A DNA stretch of 64,000 nt from Somniosus microcephalus. Lineage: Eukaryota. Under the pieces are notes generated by a model. That model saw only the letters and a list, made by a program, of their open reading frames with translations. It was not told where the DNA came from and did no database searches. Below, one piece after another: positions 14,374-61,682 of the stretch; within the stretch, counting starts at the first letter, position 1, and each line of letters starts with the position of its first letter. The position numbers and the translations under genes are program-made. The stretch spans positions 127,038,001 to 127,102,000 of the forward strand of contig CM126204.1 of the NCBI GenBank assembly GCA_052327205.1, given 5' to 3'.

Positions 14374-15043
14374 TAGGTATTCGTGTTGACCTCTCGGGAC
14401 GAATGCCTACTAAATAATTTAGTTCGAGTTCGGATGAATAATCACTAAGTTGTTTATTAACTGGAACTGACGAAATACAACAGGTAAGCTGGCTTTATAC
14501 AGGAGCAATGCGAGGTAGGTCTTACCCCGACGGGAACTCCACGAGGACTGAGTCCGTAGTCCTCGGGAGAGCGTGATGATGTCATCACGCTTAGTCACGT
14601 TTTCCCGCTCTTCGGATGTCAAGTGACCGCGTCCTGACGCTAGCGCGTTGGCCCGCGCTTGGGGCGGTCACGTGACCCGCGCCGATACGTCGGCGCATTC
14701 ACCCGGTGCGGAGGCTGGCCGTTGAGGCCGAAGTCGCGACCGCGGTAGCAGGAGCTGGAGGCCGAGCTGAGACGGCGCTTGCCGCGGGGGATCGCGTCGC
14801 TCATGTCTGCCAGCCGATGCGGCCGAAGTCGCGGTAGGCCGGGCTGTGCCGGCGGCTGTCGCGCGTACGTCACACAATGCGTGATGTGACGTCAGCGCGC
14901 TAGGGCGCGTCTTAAAGGGGCAACGGCCCCCACAGGTAAGTTAAAGGGGTAATGGCCCAAACAGGTAAGTAATACACGTACAGTTAGGTTAAAGTGAATT
15001 ATATACATTATATGTGTAAGGGACACCCGGTGGAACCACCACA
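14374..15043 (-). repeat. 3' LTR of the non-autonomous element
   Basis: Direct repeat of 24663-25914; CpG-rich; abuts the PPT (minus strand GAATTCTGGGGGGGGCGCA|TG). Confidence 0.9.
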
Positions 15044-15149
15044 TGCGCCCCCCCCAGAATTCGCTTTAACGAAAGTCCAAAGATGAGATGGTCTGACGAG
15101 CAGTTGGTCTCAGTGGGTGTGCTGTCTCGACTTGGCGGGCGAGGTCTGA

Positions 15150-15717: not shown

Positions 15718-16094
15718 TTAGTTCCTAGTTCTGATCATTCTGTTGATTCGGTCTTTTCTGTTACCAGCAGCACCAGCCTCAACAAGAGGTATTGTCTTTT
15801 CGTTCATGCCACCACGTGGCGAGGACAGTTTGAAGGGCCACAAGACATCGTTGGCCATGTTGAAGTTCTTGCCGACTGTGTAGATCCCATGGATCAGATC
15901 GCCAATACAAATTATGTCATACTTTCCAAGCTGCGTTGCAATCGAGGCTTTGGCAGTGAAAGCGATGCGCTGGTGTTGGATCTGTCGAAACCACGTTTGT
16001 AAATCAATTCATGGACAGACTTCAGATTTGGATATTCCCATGTAATGTATGGCTCTGCAATACGGAGCATGTTGATTGAAGCTTTATTCATTTT
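15718..16094 (-). pseudogene. RPL7: processed 3' half of ribosomal protein L7 (uL30) inside the LTR element
   Basis: Minus strand reads [34 protein letters not shown] /frameshift/ [59 protein letters not shown]...AGNR /frameshift/ INRMIRTRN*, matching the RPL7 C-terminus with no introns. Confidence 0.92.
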
Positions 16095-16788
16095 TGAATT
16101 TCAGATGCTTCGAAGTGGGAAGGAGCGTTTAGGATGATAGTAGGACTAAAATGTTCACTGGCCTGTGTTGAGCCGCATTTTTTCGAATCCTCATCACTGA
16201 TGGGAGTGACCGAATCGAGTTCTTCATGAGGAAGGCAATTAGAAAAGCCACTGTCCACAGGGTGACGCAACAATTTTACCCCTTTGTAATGATCAATAAC
16301 ATGTCATTCTATAGTGGACACTAGGTGGAGCCGTAGAGCTGTGTAGAGCTGTATATAGCTGTATGTATATAAGACTACACTACCCAGCTGTATGTATATT
16401 AAGACTACATTACCCATGAGGCACTAGGCTACCCACAAGGCAGCAGTCAAGATGGATGCCTCTACAGATACTGTACCTAGTCCACATGTGCTCAATAAAG
16501 TGTCTAGCAAAAGCTAGCTGTGTTCATAATAAGAATGTCTATTTATTAATGAACATAAGATGGTACCAGGATTGGTGAAGATCTGCTGAAAATTGTGAAA
16601 AGCGACATGGAGAATTTGAGGCCACCGGAATTTTTGAATCTCACGGGAAATGTTGACTTCAATTGGCGGACTTTCAAACAACAATTCGAACTCTACATTG
16701 CTGCCATCGGATTCGGTACGAAGCCAGATGCAAGGAAAATAGCGTTGCTGCTCACAGTTGCAGGCCCACAGGCGATAGAGGTATTTAA

Positions 16789-18184
16789 TGAGACAGTAAT
16801 GTAACTGTGGCTTAACCAATGGTGGACAGTACTGTAACTATGGACTAACCAATGGTGGACACAGTGCTGTAGCTGAGGCCTAACCAATGGTGGACACAGT
16901 ACTGTAACTGTGGACTAACCAATGGTGGACACAGGACTTTAACTGTGGAAACCAATGGTGGACACAGTACTGTAACTGTGGACTAAGCAATGATGGACAC
17001 AGTACTGTAACTGTGGACTAACAAATTGTGGACGTGGTACTGTGGACTAACCAATGGTGGACACAGTAGTGTAACTGTGGACTAACCAAAAGTGGACACA
17101 TTACTGTAACTGTGGAGTAATCAATGGTGGACACAGAACTGCAAATGCGGACTAACCAATGGTGGACACATTACTGTAACTGTGGACTAACCAATGAAGG
17201 ACACAGTATTGTAACTGTGGACTAACCAATGGTGGACACAGTACTGTAACTGTGGACTAACCAATGGTGGACACAGTACTGTAACTGTGGCCTAACCAAT
17301 GGTGGACACAGTATTGTAACTGTGAACCAACCAATGGTGGACATGGAACTGTAACTGTGGACTAACCAATGAAGCAGACACTACTGTAACTGTGGACTAA
17401 CCAATGGAGGACACAGTACTGTAACTGTGGCCTAACCAATGGTGGACACAGTATTGTAACTGTGAACCAACCAATGGTGGACACAGTTCTGTAACTGTGG
17501 ACTAACCAATGAAGCAGACACTACTGTAACTGTGGACTAACCAATGGAGGACACAGTACTGTAACTGTGGACTAACCAATGGAGGACACAGTACTGTAAC
17601 TGTGGACTAACCAATGGTGGACACAATACTGCAACTGTGGACTAATCAATGGAGGACACAGTACTGTAAATGTGGAGTAACCAATGGTGGACACAGTACT
17701 GTAACTGAGGACTAACCAATGGTTGACGTGGTACTGTAACTGTTGACTAACCAATGGTGGACTTGGTACTGTAACTGTGGCTTAACCAATGGTGGACACA
17801 GTATTGTAACTGTGGAGAAACCAATGGTGGACGTGGAACTGTAACTGTGGACTAACCAATGGTGGACTTGGTACTGTAACTGTGGACTAACCAATGGTAG
17901 ACGTGGTACTGTAACTGTGGACTAACCAATGAAGGACACAGTACTGTAACTGTGGACTAATCAATGGTGGACACAGTAGTGTAACTGTGGCCTAACTAAT
18001 GTTGGACACAGTATTGTAACTGTGGACTAATCAATAGTGGACATCGTACTGTAGCTGTGGCCTAACCAATGGTGGATATGGTAGTGTAACTGTGGACAAA
18101 CCAATGGTAGACACAGTATTGTAACTGTGGGCTAACCAATGGTGGATGTGGTACTGAAACTGTGGACTCACAAATGGTGGACAC
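16789..18184 (+). repeat. 35-bp minisatellite, about 40 units
   Basis: Unit ACACAGTACTGTAACTGTGGACTAACCAATGGTGG repeated with point variants. Confidence 0.95.
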
Positions 18185-18427
18185 TGTAATGATCAGTAAC
18201 CTGTCATTCTGGAATGGTACACTCGGCGGTGCTGTTTGTATATAAGAGTGAGCTACCCAGAAGGCAGCAGTCAAGATGGATGCCTCTACAGATACTGTAC
18301 CTAGTCCACATGTGCTCAATAAAGTGTCTAGCAAAAGCTAGCTGTTCTTAATAAAAACGACTAGTTATTAATGAACATAACATGGTACCAGGATTGGTAA
18401 GATCTGCTGAATATTGTGCAACTAGAC

Positions 18428-21400
18428 ATGGAGAATTTGAAGCCACCAGAGCATTTGAAACTCACAGGAAATATCGACTACAATTGGCAGACTGTTAAAC
18501 AACAATTCGAACTCTACATTGCAGCCATCGGATTCGGTACGAAGCCAGACGCAAGGAAGATGGCGTTGCTGCTTATGGTTGCAGGCCTACAGGCGATAGA
18601 GGTATTTAATACATTTGTATTTAATCCAGAGGAGAACAGAGAAAAATTAGAAGATGTGCTAAAAAAATTTGATGCACATTGCTCTCCCAAAAAGAATGAG
18701 ACCTATGAAAGATACATCTTCCGTTCTCGGACACAGCAGCAAAATGAGACTTTTGATAGCTTTATAACTGATCTGAAACTGAAAGCACAGACATGTAATT
18801 TCTCTGAGCTCAAAGCATCCATGATTTGTGACCAGATTGTGTTTGGTATTCATGATAAAAAAGTCAGGGAACGTCTGTTGAGAGAAACCGAACTAAATTT
18901 GGAAAATGCTGTGAAAATATGCCAAGCCAGCGAGCTAGCTCGAAAGCACGCGAAGACTTTCAGTGAAATCAATAATGATGCAATTGTAATGAGTGATAAT
19001 GCTGCTGTCGGTGCTGTGTCCTACAAGGGGAAGAAACGTGGGCAGAACAGAAATGAAAAGCAATCGGAGGATGAAATTTTTAATTGTAAACGCTGTAGTT
19101 ACAAACACCAGTTAAGACAATGCCCAGCGTTTGGAAAAATGTGCACAAAGTGTAATGGAAAGAATCACTTTGCCAAACAATGCTTTTCAAAAGTAAAAAC
19201 TAAGGGCAACGAGTTAATGTAATTGAGGACACTGATTTAAGTGAAACATTTTTTGTAGGAATGGTGTCACGTGACAATATCAAAAAGGATACAGAAAATG
19301 TGCAGCCCTCAGAAATGGACAATGCTGAACATAAAGTTAATGCAGTAAAAGAGGACAAATGGATGATCCCACTGCAGGTAAATGGAGCATTAGTTACCTT
19401 GAAACTAGACACTGGGGCAAAAGCAAACTTAATCAGTATGAATGACATTAACAATATGAAAGAAAAGCCCAAAATACAGAAAAAGTCAGTACGACTGAAG
19501 GACTATAATGGACAGAAAATAGATAGCTTAGGTGTATGCAGACTTAAAGTGACAGTCAAAGACAAAGTGCATCATCTCATGTTTTCTGTTGTGGCTGAAA
19601 GACTTGATTCACTACTGGGTGACAAAGCTTGTGAGGACTTAGAACTGGTCAAGAGAGTCTACCATATAAACTGTGCCATAAGCAGACCAGATGACTCGGT
19701 GGATTCTGTAGTGAATAATTTCCAGGATGTGTTCAAAGGATTTGGAGTTCTACCATTCACTTACAAGATCCAGCTAAAGGAGGATGCTCAGCCAGTGGTA
19801 CATGCTCCACGAAGAGTTCCAGCACCCCTGCGTGACCAGCTCAAGAATGAACTGGACAGAATGACCACACTAGAAGTCATCAGGAAAGTCAAAGAGCCAA
19901 CAGACTGGGTTAACTCCATGGTATGTGTAAAGAAAAAGAACAATGATCTAAGAATATGCATGGATCCAAAGGACTTAAATGCAAACGTAAAACATGAACA
20001 CTACCAGATTCCCAAGCGAGAAGAAATCACCAGTGAAATGTCAGGTGCCAGATACTTTGCAAAGCTCGATGCCTCACAAGGATTTTGGCCACTAAAACTG
20101 GATGAAGAGAGCACCAAATACCGTACCTTCAACACACCATTTGGCAGGTATTGTTTCCTCAGAATGCCTTTCGGGATAATATCTGCATCTGAAATCTTTC
20201 ATAGAGCGATGGAACACATAATTGAAGGTCTGGAAGGAGTTCGGGTCTATGTTGATGACATCATCATCTGGGGCTCCACACTGAAAGAACACAATGAGAG
20301 ACTGACTAAAGTGCTACAGAGCATACGCCGGAATGGACTGAAGCTCAACAAAGCCAAGTGTCAGTTTGGCGTCCAGGAAGTCACTTTCCTAGGAGATAAT
20401 CTATCTGGTAAAGGAATAGAGCCAGATATGGAAAAAGTAAACGCCATACTCAAAATGCCCCGACCCACTGACAAAAAAGGAGTGCTACGCATCATGGGGA
20501 TGATAAACTTCATTGGAAAGTTCATCCCTAACTTGTCAGCTAAGACAGCCTGTCTGCAAGACCTGCTACATAAAACAAATGAGTTCACATGGACAGACAG
20601 ACATGAACAAGAGTGGATAAACCTCAAAACAGTGCTGACAACCACACCTGTACTCACCTTCTTTGACCCAACAAAAAGAATCAAAGTGTCAACGGATGCA
20701 TCAAAAGATGGCCTAGGTGCGGTCTAGCTACAAGCAGAGGGTGAAGATTGGAAGCCTGTTGCCTATGCCTCCAGGTCTATGACTGATACTGAGTGTTGAT
20801 ACACCCAGATTGAAAAGGAATGTCTAGGCTTGGTAGTTGGACTAGAAAAGTTTCATGGCTACATATATGGACTTCCCACCTTCACAGTTGAGACAGACCA
20901 CAGCCCTCTGGTTGCCATCATAAAAAAAAACCTGAATGAGATGTCTCCAAGGATTCAACGACTCATGATGAAGCTGCAAAGATATGACTTTGAACTGATC
21001 TACACACCAGGCAACTACATAGTGTTAGCAGATACACTATCCCGAGTACCCACAATGAGTCATGTGAGCTCTACTGAAGAAGATGTGGATGTTCATGTGA
21101 GTATGGTCACTGCTGCGCTGCCCGTGTCAGACACAAAATCAAAGCAAATAGCAGAAGAAACAGTAAAAGATACAGTATTACAAACAGTAATAGAGAACAT
21201 TCATCATGGTTGGCCAAAAGGTTCCTGTCCAAAATATTTTCACATAAGGTCAGAATTGAGTGTCGCAAGTGGACTATTACTAAAACAGAACAGAATAGTC
21301 ATTCCACAGGCTCGACGTCAAGACATGCTCAAAAGGATTCATGAGGGACACCTCGGAATTGAAAAATGCAAAAGGAGGGCAAGAGACACTGTTTATTGGC

Positions 21401-22362
21401 CTGGCATAAATAAGGACATTGAGAGCATGATAGGCAAATGTGAGACATGTCAGAAATACCAAAACAAACAAGCAAAGGAACCAATGATGGTAGCTGACAT
21501 ACCAACAGCACCATGGCAAAAGGTTGGTATGGACCTTTTTCATTTAAATGGTAAAGACTATCTAATAGTGATTGACTACTATTCTAACTATCCTGAGATG
21601 GCGCTGCTCTCAAGCACCACAGCAAGCAGTGTCATAATGCATGTGAAATCCATCTTCGCCAGACATGGAATTCCCAGGATTGCCGTTAGCGACAATGGTC
21701 CGTGCTTCAACTGTAAGGAGTGGCAACAGTTTGCAGCACATTATGACTTTCAGCACATCACATCCAGTCCTTTGTATGCTCAGTCAAATGGTAAGGCAGA
21801 GAAAGGTGTTCAAGTTCTCAAGCAGCTACTGAAGAAAGCGACAGAAAGCAAGTCTGATCCTTATCTCGCCCCGCTGAGCTACCAAGCCTCATCTTTAGAC
21901 TGTGGTTCTTCACCTGCTGAACTACTAATGGGTCGCAAGTTGTGCACCACGCTACCCTGCTGTGCAAAAGAACAGCAAAGTGAGGAACTGAGACAGAGAC
22001 TTCAACTGTTAAAGCTGAAACAGAAATCATACTATGACAAGTCATCCAAAACTCTAAAACCATTGACAAGGGATGATGTTGTCAGGATTGAGGATCCAGA
22101 TGCATGGAACAGGAAAGCTACAGTTCTTGAGGAAGTAGGACCAAGGTCATACACTGTTAGAACTGAGGAAGGACAGATTCTCAGGAGGAACCGCCGTTCC
22201 CTCCTAAAAACACAAGAGACTATTCAAGAGCAGATTGATGACAATGCTGCAACTGCATCTTGTCATTCACCGCCAGAACAATCTCATGAAGACACATCAG
22301 ACTTACCCGTGTTGAGAAGATCCACACGTGAAGTAAAAGAGCCTGATAGACTTAATCTTTGA
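18428..22362 (+). pseudogene. Gypsy gag-pol (gag, CCHC knuckle, PR, RT, RNaseH, IN), disrupted
   Basis: CTKCNGKNHFAKQC, KLDTGA, YVDD, STDAS, HEGH..CETC, SDNGP, NGKAE; frameshift near 19205 and stops near 20725 and 20797. Confidence 0.93.
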
Positions 22363-23154
22363 GTACAATGTAAAGCTTTGAAAATGTGTTGACTGTTTTG
22401 AAAATGTTTATGTTTATAGAGCAATAACAAAAGTGTTACTGATATTATCTTTATTGTTTTCTTGAAAGTTGATTGATATTGATTTTGTTAAACCTCAAAG
22501 AAAGGGGGATGTAATGATCAATAACTTGTCATTCTATAGTGGACACTAGGTGGAGCCGTAGAGCTGTGTAGAGCTGTATATAGCTGTATGTATATAAGAG
22601 TACACTACCCAGCTGTATGTATATTAAGACTACATTACCCATGAGGCACTAGGCTACCCACAAGGCAGCAGTCAAGATGGATGCCTCTACAGAGATTGAG
22701 CAAGGGGGTGTGCATCCTGAGCACCGTCTCTGAATCTTGCCCTACTTGTCTGTTGAGGACTGGGCAATCAATCACACGCATGTCAAAGGCAGATCCTAAA
22801 TGGATGGTTTGTGAGTCTCATTGGCTGTAGCGATGGTGTAAGGAGGCTGAGCTGCGGATTCATCGCAATATTTCCCAAACAAGCCAACCGGAAGGATTCA
22901 CTGAGCGAGACTGCTACGTAGACGCTCTTTTGGGCAATTAACGTTCCGAGTCTGTCTTCCGAAGAAAATGGTCACCGTCATTGCATTAAGTCTCTGAGAG
23001 GCTTCCGGGAACGCCATTTTAAACAGTAGAGCGGACAGAAGTCATCGGTGATGTCTCATCTCAACATTACGTTCAAATCTGTGCCTTGCGGTGCTAAAGG
23101 AACTGGAAGTTAACTAAGCGGACGAGGAAACATTTGTTATTTATTGTCAATTGA

Positions 23155-23424
23155 CGTGCAGCTGTGCCCCCTAGCCCTGGTAGGCAGGTTACTGCTGGAC
23201 TTGGCACGGACCATGCCACTCTTTGAATGAGCACGAGTCTTGTGTGGTTTACCACCAGGAGTGACAGTGCTGTTCTTAGCTTTGTAGACGTAGGCACCTC
23301 TCGTGCCCAGGTAAAGGTCCGTTTCAGCGTGGCAAGAAACCCCCTCAATCTGCAGGAGAGCAGTGTGCTCTCTTTGGTTGCGAAAGCCTCGTTTATAGCC
23401 AGTAAACGCAGTTTTGCAGAACAT
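23155..23424 (-). pseudogene. RPL35A: processed ribosomal protein L35a (eL33) inside the LTR element
   Basis: [77 protein letters not shown]; intronless, with an 8-codon deletion between the two TR motifs; AATAAA just downstream. Confidence 0.93.
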
Positions 23425-23749: not shown

Positions 23750-24290
23750 ACTGCCGAGAAGGCGGCACGCTTCTCTTACTCGCCGGCAAGTATGATAGGT
23801 AACAAAACCAGCAGGCCGACGGGCTGGTGCGTCGTCGGCGGGGAACGAGTCTTCGTGTTGCATGAGGGGTGGAGCCTCGTGGCTTGCGAGGGATGGGTCC
23901 TCGAGGTTTGCGAGGGGTGGGTCCTTGTGGTTTGCGAGGGATGGGTCCTTGCGTTTCAAGAGGAGCGAGTCCTCGTGTTTGGGGAGGAGCGAGTCCTCGT
24001 GGTTCGCGGGGGTGAGTCCTCATGGTATCCCCGCCAGGCGTGCTCCGATCTTGTGGGCCCGAACATGCTGTACCCCGCGCTTGGAGAGATTTATACTTGC
24101 TGTTGCGTTGGACGTATGGGCGGACGACCCGCATGGCGGTAGAAAAGTCAAACACGGGGGCAGTAAGCAAATGCGTGGTCTGCTCCGCGTCGATGGTCCC
24201 AGCGAACTGGGCTTCTACCTTGCCAAAGCACGAGGGTGGTTGTTTCTCCCTGAAGTGCGGCGGCAACAGCAAAACGGCTGGTGCTTCCAT
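23750..24290 (-). pseudogene. decayed gag of the non-autonomous element
   Basis: MEAPAVLLLPPHFREKQPPSCFGKVEAQF...STAMRV...KYKSL resembles AVSLKLPTFWEHQAPAWFAHTEAQF...STAAEI...KYSTI of gag 47924-48790. Confidence 0.75.
23840..24025. repeat. 24-bp tandem repeat, about 7-8 units
   Basis: Unit GTCCTCGTGGTTTGCGAGGGATGG; gives 8-aa repeats (RKPQGPTP) in the gag-relic frame. Confidence 0.85.
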
Positions 24291-24660
24291 GGTGTGCTTC
24301 TTTTGCGAAAAACGTTCGCAAAATCGAGGTCCGGTTGTTTTTTTTTGTCCGTGAAAAATGTGATCACCTCCAGGCTGTGCTGCCCTTGCGAATACGTTCA
24401 CGAAAATGGGGTCGCCAGGTTCAGGCTGTGTGCTTCCTCCGTGAAAACCGTCCACGGAGTCGGTTGTTCGTCGGTTGTTCGTCGGTCGTCGTCTATGAAG
24501 ACGAGGTTCAGGATGCGCGTTTCTTCCGTGAAAAACGTTCACGGATACGGGGTCACCAATTGTAGTGTAGGAATTGATGAGCACCCGTACTCACATCGTT
24601 GGAGGTGTTGTTGGCTGCGCTTCGGCCGTGAAAAACGTTCACAGTCTCGGGGTCACCAAT
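24291..24660 (-). promoter_or_regulatory. leader with duplicated PBS and repeated stem-loops
   Basis: CTACAATTGGTGACCCCG occurs twice (about 24548-24565 and 24648-24665); five hairpins of type CCGTGAA-CGTTT-TTCACGG. Confidence 0.75.
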
Positions 24661-25914
24661 TGTAGGTATTCGTGTTGACCTCTCGGGACGAATGCCTACT
24701 AAATAATTTAGTTCGAGTTCGGATGAATAATCACTAAGTTGTTTATTAACTGGAACTGACGAAATACAACAGGTAAGCTGGCTTTATACAGGAGCAATGC
24801 GAGATAGGTCTTACCCCGACAGGGACTCCACGAGGACTGAGTCCGTAGTCCTCGGGAGAGCATGATGACGTCATCACGCTTAGTCACGTTTTCCCGCTCT
24901 TCGGATGTCATGTGACCGCGTCCTGACGCTAGCGCGTTGGCCCGCGGTAGCAGGAGCTGGAGGCCGAGCTGAGACGGCGCTTGCCGCGGGGGATCGCGTC
25001 GCTCATGTCTGCCAGCCGATGCGGCCGAAGTCGCGGTAGGCCGGGCTGTGCCGGCGGCTGTCGCGCGTACGTCACGCAATGCGCGATGTGACGTCAGCGC
25101 GCTAGGGCGCGTCTTAAAGGGGCAACAGCCCCCACAAGTAAGGTAAAGGGGCAATGGCCCAAACAGGTAAGTAATACACGTACAGTTAGGTTAAAGTGAA
25201 TTATATACATTATGGCCTAGAAATTGAGTAGCCTTAGTGCCGCATTTGAGGCGCTAGAGGGCCTAGCGCCGGAGTTATGGCCAGTTTAGAAATTCCCTGG
25301 GGCCCTAGAATCGGCGGTAGACCGGTTGCGCTGCGCCGGCACCGATGACGTCATCGGTGTGCGCAGCGTCCCGGTTGCCATGCCGACGGGCCCCAGCGCC
25401 GAAATTCAGTTGCGGCCGCCTCGCCCGTGGCAGCCGCAACTAAGACTCTGGCAACAGAGTCTTACATCAGTTAGCGCCTGCGCCTTAAGGTCGCGCGGCG
25501 GCCGGCCGCTTTCCCGCCGGCCGCCTGCCCGCACCTCCCTCCCCGGACTCCTCCACCCCCCCCCCCGCGGAACAGATGCTTCCGGGCTCATTTTTGAAAA
25601 AATCAAACGGCCAGCGATCGGGTGAAGGCAGCGCCTCCTTAACGGGAGGAGGAGGCCTGCACTTCCCCAGCCTGCCGCACCGCATCGGGTGCCGCAGCGC
25701 CGGATTAGCGCCGCAATGCGGCACTCAGCGCCCATTGGGAGGCACTCACGCCCGCCAGTAGCGCCGGCAGCCATCTGGGCGCGGCGCTACTGAATTTTTG
25801 GCGCGCGCAAGGGAATTAGCGCCGGCGCTAAATTTCCGGCGCTAAAGCCCTGGCGCGGCGTCAACTCAATTTCTAGGCCAAAATGTGTAAGGGACACCCG
25901 GTGGAACCGCCACA
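24661..25914 (-). repeat. 5' LTR of the non-autonomous element (interrupted by a MITE)
   Basis: TG...CA ends; adjacent to the tRNA-Trp PBS TGGTGACCCCGA; lacks an ~85-bp block present in the other LTR. Confidence 0.9.
25214..25879. mobile_element. Harbinger-type MITE
   Basis: TIRs GGCCTAGAAATTGAGT / ACTCAATTTCTAGGCC; absent from the paired LTR; inverted paralog at 53817-54513. Confidence 0.92.
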
Positions 25915-35844: not shown

Positions 35845-36500
35845 GGCCGGTGTCTGGAGCGGAGGTTCTGTGTGTATTTAAACTCACTTTCGCGGGCTTT
35901 TTTTTTAACAGAGGCCAGTGTCTGGAGCGGAGGTTCAGTGAATATTTAAACTCACTTTCGCAGGCCTTTTTACAGAGGCCAGTGTCGGGAGTGGTGAGAG
36001 CGGAGGTTCAGTGAGTATTTAAACTCACTTTTGCGGGCTTTTCTACAGAGGCCAGTGTCGGGAACAGTGAGAGCGGAGGTTCAGTGAGTATTTAAACTCA
36101 CTTTCGCGGGCCTTTTTACAGAGGCCAGTGTCGGGAGTGGTGAGAACGGAGGTTCAGTGAGTATTTAAACTCACTTTCGTGGGCTTTTTTTTACAGAGGC
36201 CAGTGTCGGGAACAGTGAGAGCGGAGGTTCAGTGAGTATTTAAACTCACTTTCGTGGGCTTTTTTTTACAGAGGCCAGTGTCGGGAACAGTGAGAGCGGA
36301 GGTTCAGTGAGTATTTAAACTCACTTTCGCGGGCTTTTTTTTACAGAGGCCAGTGTCGGGAACAGTGAGAGCGGAGGTTCAGTCAGTATTTAAACTCACT
36401 TTTGCGGGCTTTTTTTTTTACAGAGGCCAGTGTTGGGAGTGGTGAGATTGGAGGTTCAGTGAGTATTTAAACTTACTTTTGTGGCTTTTATACAGAGGCT
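35845..36500 (+). repeat. ~73-bp monomer array (9 units) at the CR1 5' end
   Basis: Unit ACAGAGGCCAGTGTCGGGAACAGTGAGAGCGGAGGTTCAGTGAGTATTTAAACTCACTTTCGCGGGC(T)n. Confidence 0.92.
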
Positions 36501-38667: not shown

Positions 38668-40770
38668 CTACTGAGTGGCCCGCGAGGGCGAGACCTTGGC
38701 CAGCATTTTGCCTCCCCTGCCCTGCCTGCTGCTCCTTCGCAAGCTCTGCCCAGTGGCTGCTGCGAGGCTGGGGGAAGGCGCCTGAGGCTCAGATGCCCTT
38801 CCGCCAGATGCCGCTGGGGGGCGGCCTACACGGCGTTTGGGCCTCGAGGGGCCGTCTCCTGAGTGGCGCGCCTGAGCCTGGCCACCATCAGCTGCAGCCG
38901 CTTGCCCTTGACGCCCCAGAGGGGGAATGGCGGCGACGGATGGTGCAATGTGGGCCAGCTGGCGTCTGGGATGCGCTGGCTGGTGCTGTGGCGCGGTGGC
39001 ACTCGGCCGGGCCCGCACTGCAGGATCCGCAGCAATCAGCCGACGGCCGGCTTGCTGGGATGGTCCAGCGCGGCGCCTGCCCTGGCGATGCCTGCCTGAG
39101 ACAGCGCGTGTGGCAGCAGTGAGTGGCCCTGTGGTCCTGGTGTGCGCGCGCATCACATCCGCCAGGGTCTTGACGGCATCAGTTAGCATGCGGCCAGTCG
39201 CGGCAGTTGCTGCCCCGAACTCGCGCACACTGGTCGCCAGCGACTCGATGGCCTCAGGCATGCGCCCCACCACGCTCATGAGCTCCGTGTGGCGCCGGTC
39301 CGAGTCGTCGGCCATCTGATCGAGCTTCCGCACCTCCTCCGAAGTGAAGGTGTCCGGACTGGAGTCGCGACTCTCCCGCTGGGGAGGAGGGGGCCGAACT
39401 AGGGGACCCTTGCCGCGTTGGTGACGGCGAGTGTGCCGAGCAGCAGCACTCCCCTCTGATCCTTCCCCCCTTTGGGGGGAAGGCCGCGGGCCACGCGCAC
39501 GGCTGCTGGGTGGCTGGACGCCACTGGTCCCAGAAGCTGCATTGCCCTGCGACAGTTCCTCCAGGCACTCGTCCAGTGAGGAGGTGTCGAGCATTTCCTC
39601 CTCTCCTGCGGGACGTGACTGTTCCCCCGAAGGTCCGGCTTGCTCCTCCTCCTCCTCCTGGTTGGAGGTGCTGTCACTGGCAGCCTCAGGGTCCTGGTCG
39701 TCACCAGCTGAAAGCAGGAATGCACAAGAGTAGCTTCAGAGTGAGGAGACGGCGTCAGCGAGGGAGTTAGGACTGGTGGGATTCAGCGCATTGGTGGGAC
39801 AGTGGCAAAGGAGGTAGCTCGGATGGGCCAGTGCGACGCGAGAGGGCCAAAAGGCGAGGTCCTTACCATTGCCGGGCAGTGGAGGGTCGGATACACCGCA
39901 CGCTGTGGGGACAATCACACGTGCTCCCATGAGCACACACACGCGCTCCTCCAGCCGAGTGAGCTTCTGCAGCTTGGCGCGGCCACCCCTGGCACGGGCC
40001 TGGCGATTAAACGCTACTTTAGCCTGCAAGAGAAAGGACGGGCTGTAAGTGCGCAGTGAAGCCCTGATGTAGTGTGCACTGCCTCCCATGGTGGAATAGC
40101 TTGGACAGAGTGAAGCCCTGATGTAGTGTGCACTGCCTCCCATGGTGGAATAGCTTGGACAGAGTGAAGCCCTGATGTAGTGTGCACTGCCTCCCATGGT
40201 GGAATAGCTTGGACAGAGTGAAGCCCTGATGTAGTGTGCACTGCCTCCCATGGTGGAATAGCTTGGACAGAGTGAAGCCCTGATGTAGTGTGCACTGCCT
40301 CCCATGGTGGAATAGCTTGGACAGAGTGAAGCCCTGATGTAGTGTGCACTGCCTCCCATGGTGGAATAGCTTGGCAAAAGTGTAGAGTGCCGAATGGCCA
40401 TTTGATGCTCATGACTGTCCCAATGCTGCTGGCTGAGGGCTGGCCAAAAGGACTTTCAGGTCCCTTTGCCCATCATGTCAGGTGTACATGCAAGAATGAG
40501 GAGGAGACTGGAAAGGCTACTCACCCTCACAATCCTGGTCAGATCGTTGTACTTCTTACGGCATTGTGTGTGGGTCCTGGGGGCCTCGCCGGTGAACGTC
40601 ACCCTCTGGGCGATCTGCTTCCAGGCTTTGGTGTAGTCGTGGTGGGTTGGATTCCTCCCACTGTCTGGAAACAAGATCTTGCGCCTCACCTCCAGAGCTG
40701 TGAGCATGATGTCCAGATCACCCTCTGAGAAGCGCAGGGCACGCTGACGGGCCTTCTCTGGCGTTGCCAT
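38668..40770 (-). CDS. Harbinger Myb/SANT DNA-binding protein, 3 exons (40770-40525, 40023-39867, 39707-38668), ~480 aa
   Basis: RFSEGDLDIML..LFP..AWKQIA..RTHTQCRKKYNDL; canonical GT/AG sites; phases 0 and 1 join in frame to ORF 38668-39594. Confidence 0.88.
40055..40374. repeat. 54-bp perfect tandem repeat x6 in intron 1 of the Myb/SANT gene
   Basis: Unit GAGTGAAGCCCTGATGTAGTGTGCACTGCCTCCCATGGTGGAATAGCTTGGACA. Confidence 0.95.
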
Positions 40771-46011: not shown

Positions 46012-46739
46012 ATTTGGATGATCAGCCATGGTCGCATTGAATGGCAGAAGAGGCTCGAGGGGCCGAATGGCCTACTCCTGCTCCTATCTTTTATGTTTCT
46101 ATAGCTCTACCAAAGAGTCGGCACAGGCACGATGGGTCGAATGGCCTCCTGTGCTGTATGATTCTATGATTTGCATTTTTCACTTCAAAATTAACTTAAA
46201 TAGATCAAATACCATAGACGGTCAAGTTCTATTTCTTTCCTTCTTTGTACCACAAAAAAACTATTCTGTGTGATTTAAGACATCTTTAATGAGTCATTTT
46301 ATATAAGCATTGATACAATATTGATGAATGTAACTATATAAAGTAATTAAAATCATATACATTATTGTTGTTTTATGTGCAGTGTCTGTGTTCAAGAGCT
46401 GTATTTCCTCATTGTAATCTTTATTATTTGCCTCTGTACCTCTACCAAATATTGCCATTTTGGAATCAAGGCTCCACATAATTAGTGTCCAATGATACAT
46501 TTGAAAAAGCAATGATGTAACTTTTGTTTTTATTACAAAATAATTCTATGAAGTTATTGAAAAAATTCTGTTGCTGTAGACTTCTAAATGAAAGCAGTTC
46601 AATGATTCATCCTGTTAAAAATGTATTGGGCTATATTGTTAATATTTAGGTCTAGAAATTATGCTGTGAAATTTTGGGGTGAATTTTCATTTTTACTGAC
46701 TGGCGGTAGCAGAACGATTGACTTCAACGGAAATGGAAA

Positions 46740-47146
46740 TCGGGCGGGTGTAAATCGAAGGGGTGTGAAAGGGGTGGGGGATGTGAATGGGCGGGTGTGA
46801 TTGGGGTGGATGTGAATCGAAGGGGTGTGAAAGGGGTGGGGGATGTGAATGGGCGGGTGTGAATGGGGTGGATGTGAATTGAAGGGTTGTGAAAGGGGTG
46901 GGGGATGTGAATGGGCGGGTGTGAATGGGGTGGATGTGAATCGAATGGGTGTGAAAGGGGTGGGGGATGTGAATGGGCGGGTGTGAATGGGGCGGGTGTA
47001 AATCAAAGAGGTGTGAAAGGAGTGGGGGCTGTGAATGGGCGGGTGTGAATGGGGCGGGTGTGAATCAAAGGGGCGTGAAAGGGGTGGGGGATGTGAATGG
47101 GCGGGTGTGAATCAAAGGGGTGTGAAAGAGGTGGGGGACGTGAATG
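46740..47146 (+). repeat. G-rich minisatellite (15-16-bp GTGAA subunits, ~62-bp higher-order unit), left part
   Basis: GTGAATGGGCGGGT / GTGAATCGAAGGGGT / GTGAAAGGGGTGGGGGAT repeats; the array resumes at 53260. Confidence 0.9.
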
Positions 47147-47604
47147 TGTAAAGGAAGTAGCCATATTCCAAGAGATACACCATCCTATGAATGGAATTTT
47201 GACCTTATTAAAACATGAAAACTGGGTTTAAAAATCTAAAAGCCTCATCGACACAGGCTGCAAACAGAACACAGGCTTTTGAGATAAGATCAGTTGTTAA
47301 CACAAGCTGTAAACACCACACAAGCTTTTGAAATGGAAATTGATTGTTAATACTAAGACAATGGCCCTATTGAAGCAAAGGGTTGGAGGTTCCTGTATGT
47401 CTGAACATTGGAACCAACACAATAGCAATGCCCAAGTAAAGTGTTAAAAATGAACACTTCGAACAGAAACACAGAATATTAAAAAAACATGTGCCTTTGA
47501 TGAAAGTAACATCAAATGAAAGACAGGAAACATAAGTCTGTAATATAACCAACTAAGATGGCTAGGAAAACAAACACCCCAGTTGAAGTGTTTTTGATTT
47601 ACAT

Positions 47605-53816: not shown

Positions 53817-54513
53817 GGCCTAGAAATTGGGTTTTGGCGCAGCCAGGGCTTTAGCGCCGGAAGTTAGTGCCGGCGCTAAGTCCCCCTGCGCGCGCCAAAA
53901 ATTCAGTAGCGCCGCGCCCAAACGGCTGCCGGCGCTACTGGAGGGTTTCAGCGCCTCCCAATGGGCGCTACCTGCCCCATTGCGGCGCTGTTCCGGCGCT
54001 GCAGCGCCCGATGCGGTGCGGCAGGCTGGGGAAGTGCAGGCCTCCTCCTTCCGTTAAGGAGGAGCTGCCTGCACCCGACCGCTGGCCGTTGACGGCTGAA
54101 TAAAAATGAGCCCGGCACCTCGGAGAAGTGCCGGGCTCGCGGCCCACATGCATCTGTGCCGCGGGGGGGTCTTGGAGGAGTCCGGGGAGGGAGGTGCGGG
54201 CAGGCGGCCGCCGGGGAAGCGGCCGGCCGCCGCGCGACCTTAATGCGCCGGCGCTAACTTCAGCAAGGCACCTTTTACAGAACGTTGCTTGCGGCTGCCA
54301 CAGGCGAGGCGGCCGCAACTCAATTTTGGAGTTCGGGCGGGTTACCACGGCAACCGGGACGCTGCGCACACCGATGACGTCATCGGTGCCGGCGCAGCGC
54401 TACCGGTGCAACGCCGCTTTAGAGCCCCACTCAATTTTTCAAATGGCCATAACTCTGGCGCTAGTCCCTCTAGCGCCTCAAAAGCGGCGCTAAGGCTAGT
54501 GAATTTCTAGGCC
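53817..54513. mobile_element. Harbinger-type MITE (inverted paralog of 25214-25879)
   Basis: TIRs GGCCTAGAAATT / AATTTCTAGGCC, ATA TSD, internal homology to 25214-25879. Confidence 0.93.
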
Positions 54514-54585
54514 ATAGAGTTTTACAGCACAGAAAGAGGCCCTTCGGCCCATCGTGTCTGCGCCGCCCATCCCTCCCTGTCCAGT

Positions 54586-58709: not shown

Positions 58710-61682
58710 TGTAATGATCAGTAACATGTCATGCTAGAATGGTACACTAGGTGGAGCTGTATGTTTAGTAGTGGGCTACCCACGAGGCACTAGTCAAGAT
58801 GGATACTGTATACAAGTCCACATGGCTGAATAAATGACTAGCACAAGCTAGCTGTTCATAATAAAAACGTCTATTTATTTATGAACATAACATGGTACCA
58901 GGAGTGGTAATATCTGCTGAATATTGCGAAATGCGACATTAGAATTTGAAGCCACCGGAGGGTTTGAAACTCATGGGGTATGTCGACTGCAATTGGCGGA
59001 CTTTCAAACAACAATTCGAACTCTACATTGCTGCTATCGGGTTCGGCACGAAGCCAGACGCAAGGAAAATAGCGTTGCTGCTCACGGTTGCAGGCCCGCA
59101 GGCGATAGAGGTATTAATACATTTGTATTTGATCAAGAGGAGGATAGAGAAAAGATGGACGTCAGGCTAAAGAAGTTTGATACACATTGTTCTCCCAAAA
59201 AGAACGAGACCTATGAGAGGTACGTGTTCTGTTCATGGACACAGCAGCAAAATGAGACTTTTGATAGCTTTGTGACCGATCTGAAACTGAAAGCACAGAC
59301 ATGTAATTTCTCTGAACTGAAATCATCCATGATTCGTGATCAGATTGTGTTTGGTATTCATGATAAAAAGGTCAGGGAACGTCTGTTAAGAGAAACCGAA
59401 CTAACATTGGAGGATGCTGTGAAAATATGCCATGCCAGTGAGCTTGCTTAGCAGCACGCAAAGACTTTCAGTGAAATTAATAATGGTGCGACTGTAGTGA
59501 GTGCAGTTGTCGGTGCTGTGTCCTGCAAGGGGAAGAAACGTGGGCAGAACAGGAATGCAAAGCAATCGGAGGATGGAACGTTCAATTGTAAACGCTGTGG
59601 TTACCAGCACCAGCCAAGACAATGCCCAGTGTTTGGGAAAATGTGCACAAAATGTAATGGAAAGAATCACTTTGCCAAACAATGCTTTTCAAAAGTAAAA
59701 ACTAAGAAAGGACATAAAGGTAATGCAGTAAAAGCGGACACTGATTTAAGTGAGACATTTTTTGTAGGAATGGTGTCATGTAACAATATAGAAAAGGATA
59801 CAGAAAATGTGCAGCCCTCAGGAATGGACAATGCTGAACATAAAGTTAATGCAGTAAAAGAGGACAAATGGATGATGCCACTGCAGGTAAATGGAGCATT
59901 AGTTACATTGAAACTAGACACTGGGGCAAAAGCAAACTTAATCAGTATGAGTGATATTAAAAATATGAAAGAAAAGGCCAAAATACAGAAAAAGTCAGTA
60001 CTACTGAAGAACTTTAATGGACAGAAAATAGATAGCTTAGGTACATGCAGACTTAAAGTGACAGTCAAAGACAAAGTGCATCATCTCATGTTTTCTGTTG
60101 TGGTTGAAGGACTTGATTCACTACTAGGTGACAAAGCTTGTGAGGACTTAGAACTGGTCAAGAGAGTCTACCGTATAAACTGTGCCATAAGCAGACCAGA
60201 TGACTCAGTGGATTCTGTAGTGAGTAATTTCCAGGATGTGTTCAAAGGATTTGGAGTTCTACCATTCACTTACATGATCCAGCTAAAGGAGGATGCTCAG
60301 CCAGTGGTACATGCTCCACGGAGAGTTCCAGCACCCCTGCATGACTGGCTCAAGAAAGAACTGGACAGAATGACCACATTAGGAGTCATCAGGAAAGTCG
60401 AAGAGCCAACAGACTGGGTTAACGCCATGGTATGTGTAAAGAAAAGAACAATGATCTAAAAGTATGCATGGATCCAAAGGACTTAAATGCAAACATAAAA
60501 CGTGAACACTACCAGATTCCCAAGCAAGAAGAAATCATCAGTGAAATGTCAGGTGCCAGATACTTCACAAAGCTCGATGCCTCACAAGGATTGTGGCAAC
60601 TAAAACTGGATGAACAGAGCACCAAATACTGTACCTTCAACACACCATTTGGCAGGTATTGTTTCCTCAGAATGCCTTTCGGGATAATATCTGCATCTGA
60701 AATCTTTCATAGAGCGATGGAACACATAATTGAAGGTCTGGAAGGAGTTCGGGTCTATGTTGATGACATCATCATCTGGGGCTCCACACTGAAAGAACAC
60801 AATGAGAGACTGACTAAAGTGCTACAGAGTATACGCCGGAATGGACTGAAGCTCAACAAAGCCAAGTGTCAGTTTGGCGTCCAGGAAGTCACTTTCCTAG
60901 GAGATAATCTATCTGGTAAAGGAATAGAGCCAGATATGGAAAAAGTAAACGCCATACTCAAAATGCCCCGACCCACTGACAAAAAAGGAGTGCTATGCAT
61001 CATGGGGATGATAAACTTCATTGGAAAGTTCATTCCTAACTTGTCAGCCAAGACAGCCTGTCTGCGAGACCTGCTACATAAAACAAATGAGTTTGCATGG
61101 ACAGAAAGACATGACCAAGAGTGGATAAACCTCAAAACAGTGCTGACAACCACACCTGTACTCACCTTCTTTGACCCAACATAGAGAATCAAAGTGTCAA
61201 CGGATGCATCAAAAGATGGCCTAGGCACGGTCTTGCTACAAGCAGAGGGTGAAGATTGGAAGCCTGTTGCCTATGCCTCCAGGTCTATGACTGATACTGA
61301 GTGTCGATACGCCCAGATTGAAAAGGAATGTCTAGGCTTGGTAGTTGGACTAGAAAAGTTCCATGGCTACATATATGGACTTCCCACCTTCACAGTTGAG
61401 ACAGACCACTGTCCACTGGTTGCCATCATAAAAAAAAACCTGAATGAGCTGTCTCCAAGGATTTAACAACTCATGATGAAGCTGCAAACTTATGACTTTG
61501 AACTGATCTACACACCAGGCAACTACATAGTGTTAGCAGATGCACTATCCTGAGCACCCACAATGAGTCATGTGAGCTCTACTGAGGAAGACGTGGATGT
61601 TCATGTGAGTATGGTCACTGCTGCGCTGCCCGTGTCAGACACAAAATCAAAGCAAATAGCAGAAGAAACAGTAAAAGATACA
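58710..61682 (+). mobile_element. second copy of the tRNA-Leu-primed Gypsy family, disrupted and interrupted by a Harbinger
   Basis: LTR 58710-58892, PBS TGGTACCAGGAGTGG, gag/PR/RT/RNaseH closely similar to 18428-21174 with stops and frameshifts. Confidence 0.93.

Follow-up and report, generated by a model that had tools for sequence, protein, structure and literature searches.

Defective-interfering RNAs are deleted genomes that keep their cis signals and compete for helper proteins, and the retrotransposon parasite described here would work likewise, with the difference that it is a germline element with a fossil series of stages. Among LTR elements, TRIM, LARD, TR-GAG and VL30 share with it an LTR-PBS-PPT shell without working genes that is mobilised in trans, and their signal is assumed to be structural (PMC4558846, PMC4859993). 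The packaging signal of such non-autonomous elements has been called difficult to identify (PMC4558846), and for mouse VL30 no conserved one is reported to have been found (PMC4859993). In contrast to these elements, the present one lets us see the helper family, a candidate signal and the stepwise multiplication of that signal. Retroviruses and Ty1 have their packaging and dimer signals close to the 5' end, and the retroviral psi/DIS and the Ty1 SL1/PAL resemble our candidate in being short hairpins near the 5' end and the PBS, a candidate for Gag recognition or for an extended-duplex dimer (PMC6844567); the packaging sequences of Ty1 and Ty3 are described as lacking precise definition (PMC4974528). 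Unlike the retroviral DIS, the predicted hairpin described here has loops that are not conserved palindromes.

The CsRn1 clade of Gypsy elements is recognised by a PBS for tRNA-Trp, a CHCC Gag, a 4-bp TSD and a GPF integrase tail (PMC2582038), together with the att motifs TGTGGYG and MSYYAMA (PMC3601003). It was originally described as invertebrate-specific (PMC2582038) and is now known in fish, pufferfish included (PMC11117352). CsRn1, PwRn1 and AgCR share with the present element the tRNA-Trp PBS, the 4-bp TSD and the att motifs, and share the CHCC Gag and the GPF tail with its coding relatives (PMC2582038, PMC3601003). As far as their accessible text goes, accounts of CsRn1 mention neither a conserved post-PBS hairpin nor a non-autonomous multi-unit leader (PMC2582038, PMC11117352).

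In this study we analyse a window of 64,000 nucleotides from Somniosus microcephalus, together with searches of the 6.4-Gb genome assembly, and describe a leader in which one hairpin has been multiplied. The type of element and its clade were already known; of this hairpin or a stepwise multiplied leader unit we found no description in the accessible literature, outside which lie subscription papers and Repbase/Dfam entries.

Results

Classification and anatomy of the element

Judged by its sequence features, the array forms the leader of a Gypsy LTR element that is non-autonomous and belongs to the CsRn1 clade, an assignment based on the PBS, the Gag motif, the TSD, the att motifs and the order PR-RT-RH-IN-GPF. 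The PBS matches tRNA-Trp over 12 nt in the window and perfectly over 11-14 nt in 78/78 gag-linked sites (intact tRNA-Trp genes lie in locus L246; the tRNA-like loci L221, L222, L225 and L245 were missed by ARAGORN). All seven coding relatives carry the Gag motif CX2HX9CX3C (CHCC), which is deleted in the parasite itself, and the coding relatives show the motif order PR-RT-RH-IN-GPF. A 4-bp TSD is exact in 11 of the 13 family copies with both ends, mismatched in one, lacking in one, and unreadable in the window copy, while the LTR tips fit the CsRn1 att motifs. The element has LTRs, a PBS, a PPT and dispersed copies with TSDs and no intact gag-pol, as in non-autonomous LTR elements of the TRIM/LARD type, and the first-pass annotation was right to call it a non-coding parasite: it belongs to a lineage with a gag deletion and without intact gag-pol. 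Its parts in the window are as follows.

24663..25914, minus strand: 5' LTR, starting TGTGGCG and ending CCTACA, split by a MITE-like insert that occupies 25214-25879
24034..24291, minus strand: decayed 5' part of gag, ending at a deletion junction common to the parasite lineage
23850..24030, minus strand: 24-nt tandem repeat behind the deletion junction
23158..23424, minus strand: sense fragment captured from the mRNA of ribosomal protein L35a (PF01247, E 3.5e-22)
16285..22690, plus strand: nested, unrelated Gypsy gag-pol element with CCHC Gag, a later insertion outside the family structure
15721..15990, minus strand: sense fragment captured from the mRNA of ribosomal protein L7, or uL30 (E ~1e-31 against vertebrate L7)
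15048..15055, minus strand: polypurine tract, a G-run, preceding the 3' LTR
14374..15043, minus strand: 3' LTR, its final two bases absent in the window copy

The two LTRs are 97.8% identical with the insert excluded, and family copies without the nested insert measure ~4.6 kb. The window's subfamily has carried and amplified two fragments of ribosomal-protein mRNAs (L35a and L7), and the captured sequence finds its best match in vertebrates; the L35a fragment is present in 18/19 family copies but in only 1/37 other parasite loci. The MITE-like insert in the 5' LTR has terminal inverted repeats and an inverted relative at ~53817-54516. Inside the nested Gypsy element, of which a relative lies at ~58900-61200, there is a 35-nt tandem array (~16791-18250), and further tandem arrays occur in the window at 35857-36487, 40001-40432 and 46676-47171, with units of 73-75, 54 and 62 nt.

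The hairpin array of the leader

Between the 5' LTR and the decayed gag the leader is built from the following features, numbered in the direction of the element.

24647..24658, minus strand: PBS1, LTR-adjacent, a 12-nt match to the 3' end of the genome's tRNA-Trp(CCA)
24626..24644, minus strand: hairpin 1, with a U-G pair from one private CpG change
24591..24598, minus strand: tRNA-Trp-complementary remnant in the spacer (primer positions 11-18), for which sister subfamilies have an intact, bulged 17-nt PBS
24548..24558, minus strand: PBS2 with the duplicated LTR end, an 11-nt match, not observed as an LTR end
24525..24545, minus strand: hairpin 2
24437..24459, minus strand: hairpin 3, with a family-shared G-U at the second pair and no PBS in front
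24408..24417, minus strand: PBS3, decayed
24388..24401, minus strand: hairpin 4, with a 4-nt loop
24351..24367, minus strand: broken unit 5, its 5' arm lost and 4 bp remaining, present in many copies
24301..24323, minus strand: hairpin 6, ~28 nt ahead of the dead gag AUG, which is the ancestral position

The array in the window comprises five paired copies of the hairpin and one broken copy. The five hairpins and three PBS-like strings of the first-pass annotation sit on the minus strand where it had placed them, with the LTR-end/PBS string duplicated at PBS1 and PBS2 and the third PBS decayed; the broken unit at 24351-24367, a sixth member, had escaped it. A pattern of PBS plus hairpin has 475 exact matches in the genome and none in the control, so the array is not a product of chance. 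The minimum-free-energy fold of the 401-nt leader shows 4/5 hairpins (z -2.0 in sense, -1.1 in antisense), and when the six units are folded separately the sense strand is better in four and equal in two. An Rfam scan matched no family, its single hit (E 2.2) lying outside the array.

The annotation had further read all stem changes as compensatory or wobble pairs. The two-sided change GUG/CAC to GCG/CGC between units is real. An alignment of the family (30 of 40 scored copies, from 2,225 candidates) shows two changes private to the window copy. One is the U of CUGUG in hairpin 1, where 29/29 other family copies aligned have C, so this wobble is CpG decay; the other is a stem-breaking C in front of hairpin 4.

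In two stranded RNA runs the array region gave 114-161 versus 6-9 and 89-133 versus 20-22, the prevailing direction being that of the host L35a reads and hence the element's sense. Since most of these reads have less than 95% similarity, and loose ends that fit sister subfamilies, they show transcription of the lineage rather than of the window copy.

A single hairpin behind the PBS of coding relatives

The annotation had pointed to autonomous relatives as the place where a single-copy version of the hairpin might be found, and such a version is present there: coding relatives have one hairpin between the PBS and the gag AUG, and in every coding family it follows the PBS at a distance of 0-6 nt. 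A search of the genome by PBS only gave 11,610 sites versus 25; among the sites inspected (90 of the first 100 matches listed), 78/90 had a gag motif no more than 130 nt from the PBS. The 30 nt behind the PBS of these 78 sites, chosen by PBS, have a mean z of -2.6 with 71% below -2, against 1-5% below -2 in four control windows in LTR and gag. With ~11,600 tRNA-Trp PBS sites genome-wide, the CsRn1 elements of this vertebrate form a very large radiation.

Coding leaders fall into 23 rough clusters, some of which split one family. Their stems differ between families and stay paired, and above unrelated outer stems they have a common apex of a G-C, an R-Y and mostly an A-U pair, closed by a 4-5-nt loop that opens with C and a purine (G-R-A/C-R-N-N(-N)/U-Y-C). 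Recurrence of this apex over unrelated outer stems would be expected of a recognised loop, and the presence of a conserved predicted RNA secondary structure 3' of the PBS is a character of psi-type signals. Across 53 distinct leaders, 75.9% of cells pair compared with 68.6% in shuffles that ignore relatedness (0/500); two-sided change occurs at 7/10 pairs, which is no excess, the shuffles having reached that number in 248/500. Sliding the alignment by -1 scores nearly as high because 14 rows with four-nt loops are out of register. The annotation's statement that wobbles pair on the sense strand only survives as a tendency: G-U exceeds A-C by 53 to 23 when counted by cell (p=0.0008, the copies not being independent), and the excess is weak at the level of families (26 versus 14, p=0.08).

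A second, covarying-looking hairpin, U5-IR-like, forms the end of the LTR immediately upstream of the PBS (mean z -2.3 over the LTR 3' ends of L061-L160). The one distant relative found, L285, with 39% Gag identity, has a 2-bp echo of the apex only. In other species, a metagenome scan returned one locus and a viral scan none.

The parasite lineage and the rise in hairpin number

The gag deletion junction marks the parasite lineage and has 1,126 exact matches (control 0), giving at least 1,126 copies. In a midpoint-rooted tree built from the gag piece of 68 parasite and 39 coding rows, the parasites form a clade with support 100/99 inside a coding family that has the same hairpin sequence. Basal parasite rows have one hairpin, the following ones two, and four to six are reached in two subclades, by two separate rises. 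Among the first 30 junction matches listed, two have one hairpin, three have two and 25 have three or more; the 37 further parasite loci were partly picked for rare junction types. The largest subclade sampled, of 22 rows, has mostly three units, fewer than its inferred ancestors and than its sister groups with 4-5, so the number plateaus and can fall. Hairpin number is confounded with time and with the new bulged PBS described below, and LTR identities in the set of longer loci are noisy from repeats inside the LTRs.

Amplification is seen in one lineage only, to which 99 of 100 listed matches of a PBS plus two hairpins (190 in total) belong, as do, by inspection, all of 30 close double-PBS matches. 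Two pattern searches found no independent amplification in other CsRn1 families; they covered hairpins spaced by 22-52 nt and exact PBSs spaced by 30-60 nt, outside which fall longer spacings and hairpins with 4-nt loops. The idea that the units were borrowed from different helper families was rejected, because the downstream flanks of all units, by inspection, resemble the leader of the parent family. Near-identical six-hairpin parasite copies occur on several small contigs (L314-L317; C44-C117), probably inside a larger repeat.

Pairing is kept while PBS copies decay

Detection of parasite units demanded an intact 5' arm, and loop length was chosen by pairing, so that units with a damaged 5' arm dropped out, among them the broken unit 5 and a recurrent type whose GCGUA arm leaves a U-U mismatch. 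The 350 units thus obtained, which come from 111 distinct leaders, are 98-99% paired at pairs 1-7, and every stem type seen at least 12 times keeps every pair. Among these recurrent types, pairs 4, 6, 7 and 9 have changed on both sides and G-U has become fixed at pairs 1 and 2; the loop drifts at its middle positions. Internal units have a perfect PBS in only 50/308 cases and at least four PBS mismatches in 135/308, yet show 99% pairing: what is kept is the hairpin rather than the PBS. For the eight fixed changes, counted by hand (4+2+1+1), the chance of keeping all pairs is 6e-4 to 1e-2, or 3e-5 to 4e-4 if the doubles have to be two-sided.

Changes private to single copies behave otherwise, private CpG changes in the 3' arm having produced G-U 22 times and A-C 26 times. 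The annotation had proposed to judge selection on RNA structure by whether stem-breaking substitutions are as frequent here as elsewhere in the element, a comparison that in this form is not a fair test, neutral decay being the normal fate of dead copies; since inserted copies do decay in this way, evidence for selection must come from fixed differences. Its claim of selection is supported by the fixed stem changes, which keep pairing, and not by the private ones, which break stems neutrally.

Which primer site is used

The 3' LTR stops two bases short of PBS1 in 14/14 family copies with a found end (19 examined), and the spacer ends before PBS2 run into a PBS in 30/30 (30 of 191 matches). In 35/37 longer loci the LTR ends at a PBS upstream of every hairpin; the other two gave no end. 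Multiple functional primer sites were accordingly rejected, LTR ends not being found at internal PBS copies, and the annotation's suggestion that priming signals had been multiplied is unsupported because the extra PBSs do not mark LTR ends and are seldom perfect. A PBS-like remnant inside the LTR end, present in 9/37 longer loci, suggests rare, old takeover of the primer site.

The commonest parasite subfamilies use as PBS a bulged 9+8-nt (17-nt) match to tRNA-Trp, compared with 11-14 nt in coding families (L161-L190, L248-L284). Their LTR-adjacent PBS has no hairpin directly behind it, so priming needs no hairpin adjacency. A similar bulged primer site is found at the distant locus L285.

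At locus L298 (G000:C3:81056795-81056879) the LTR end is followed directly by ~39 nt complementary to tRNA-Trp, which is primer read-through fixed in a genomic copy. Units begin at the LTR-end/PBS repeat, and L300/L314 contain exact 60-nt unit tandems. The tandems and the long tRNA complement point to the PBS as the source of units, which may arise when plus-strand transfer is misplaced or reverse transcription slips at the LTR-end/PBS repeat.

Discussion

A non-coding RNA of this kind would need LTR tips, a PBS, a PPT and entry into helper particles. We give about even chances to the reading that the hairpin is a Gag-recognition signal, for packaging or dimerisation, that was multiplied and kept by selection for entering helper particles. 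Selection would keep at least several copies folded, and the extra hairpins are predicted to help the parasite RNA into the particles. Translation control would not explain retention of the hairpin, since the parasite makes no Gag. With no translation role, no need for adjacency to the PBS, weak primer pairing and non-palindromic loops, a packaging or dimer signal would be the most likely function remaining. Against this reading weigh the single origin of the amplification, a hairpin number that does not rise steadily, the weak G-U excess among families and the near-absence of the hairpin in the one distant relative. A kissing hairpin of DIS type was considered and rejected; the loops (CGUUU, CGAUU, CAAUU, CGAA, CAAAC) include no conserved self-complementary sequence and most are not palindromic, which makes such a kiss unlikely. 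More tentatively, and short of an even chance, the post-PBS stem-loop may be the long-sought, sharply defined packaging signal of a clade of Gypsy elements, and the parasite lineage may record an arms race in which the signal was multiplied stepwise, and the primer site upgraded to the bulged 17-nt match copied from the tRNA, so as to out-compete the helper for Gag.

The extra hairpins could instead be passengers, one being needed and the rest generated by slippage at the PBS, with conversion or palindrome repair keeping the pairing without any gain. Templated palindrome repair or conversion between units could give two-sided changes without selection, several of those seen are on CpG positions, and the PBS offers a clear mutational source; moreover, units are gained and lost freely, the broken unit 5 has been kept, and a single lineage amplified. 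We nevertheless consider this explanation rather unlikely, because each unit of a leader still pairs although its stem and loop differ from those of the others, unlike the outcome of homogenisation, and because pairs 7 and 9, which are not CpG, also changed on both sides. At pairs 1-2 the A-to-G change that leaves G-U was fixed in two lineages, whereas the breaking U-to-C is found in 1/700 cells, and adjacent PBS copies decay. To a role in the initiation of reverse transcription, in which the hairpin would open and pair with the tRNA-Trp T-arm as part of an extended, bipartite PBS or present the PBS together with the U5 stem, we assign a still lower probability. Ty1 and Ty3 have bipartite PBSs (PMC4974528), the hairpin of coding families stands immediately behind the PBS and is mirrored by the one at the U5 end, and in the parasite lineage the primer duplex can reach 16-17 bp if the 5' arm CGUGA joins it. 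Over the 23 family clusters, however, both extended primer pairing (mean z -0.75) and T-arm pairing (mean z -0.66) are weak, and they were rejected as a clade-wide role; hairpins far from the used PBS stay paired, and the commonest parasite PBS does without an adjacent hairpin. Least probable to us is a role as binding site for a host protein, by which the RNA would be stabilised, exported or diverted from translation. Conserved loop bases on variable stems and a position just before the gag AUG of coding families would suit such a partner, which would also favour multiplication, but the hairpin matches no Rfam family, and helper Gag would be the simplest shared partner.

The candidate signal measures 25 nt and is pinned by covariation over ~20 family clusters, in a leader of only 35-80 nt. 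The natural dosage series, from one to six copies, makes both Gag recognition in Gypsy elements and the gain from repeats testable with short RNAs, and the parasite lineage may serve as a compact test case for how such elements choose their RNA.
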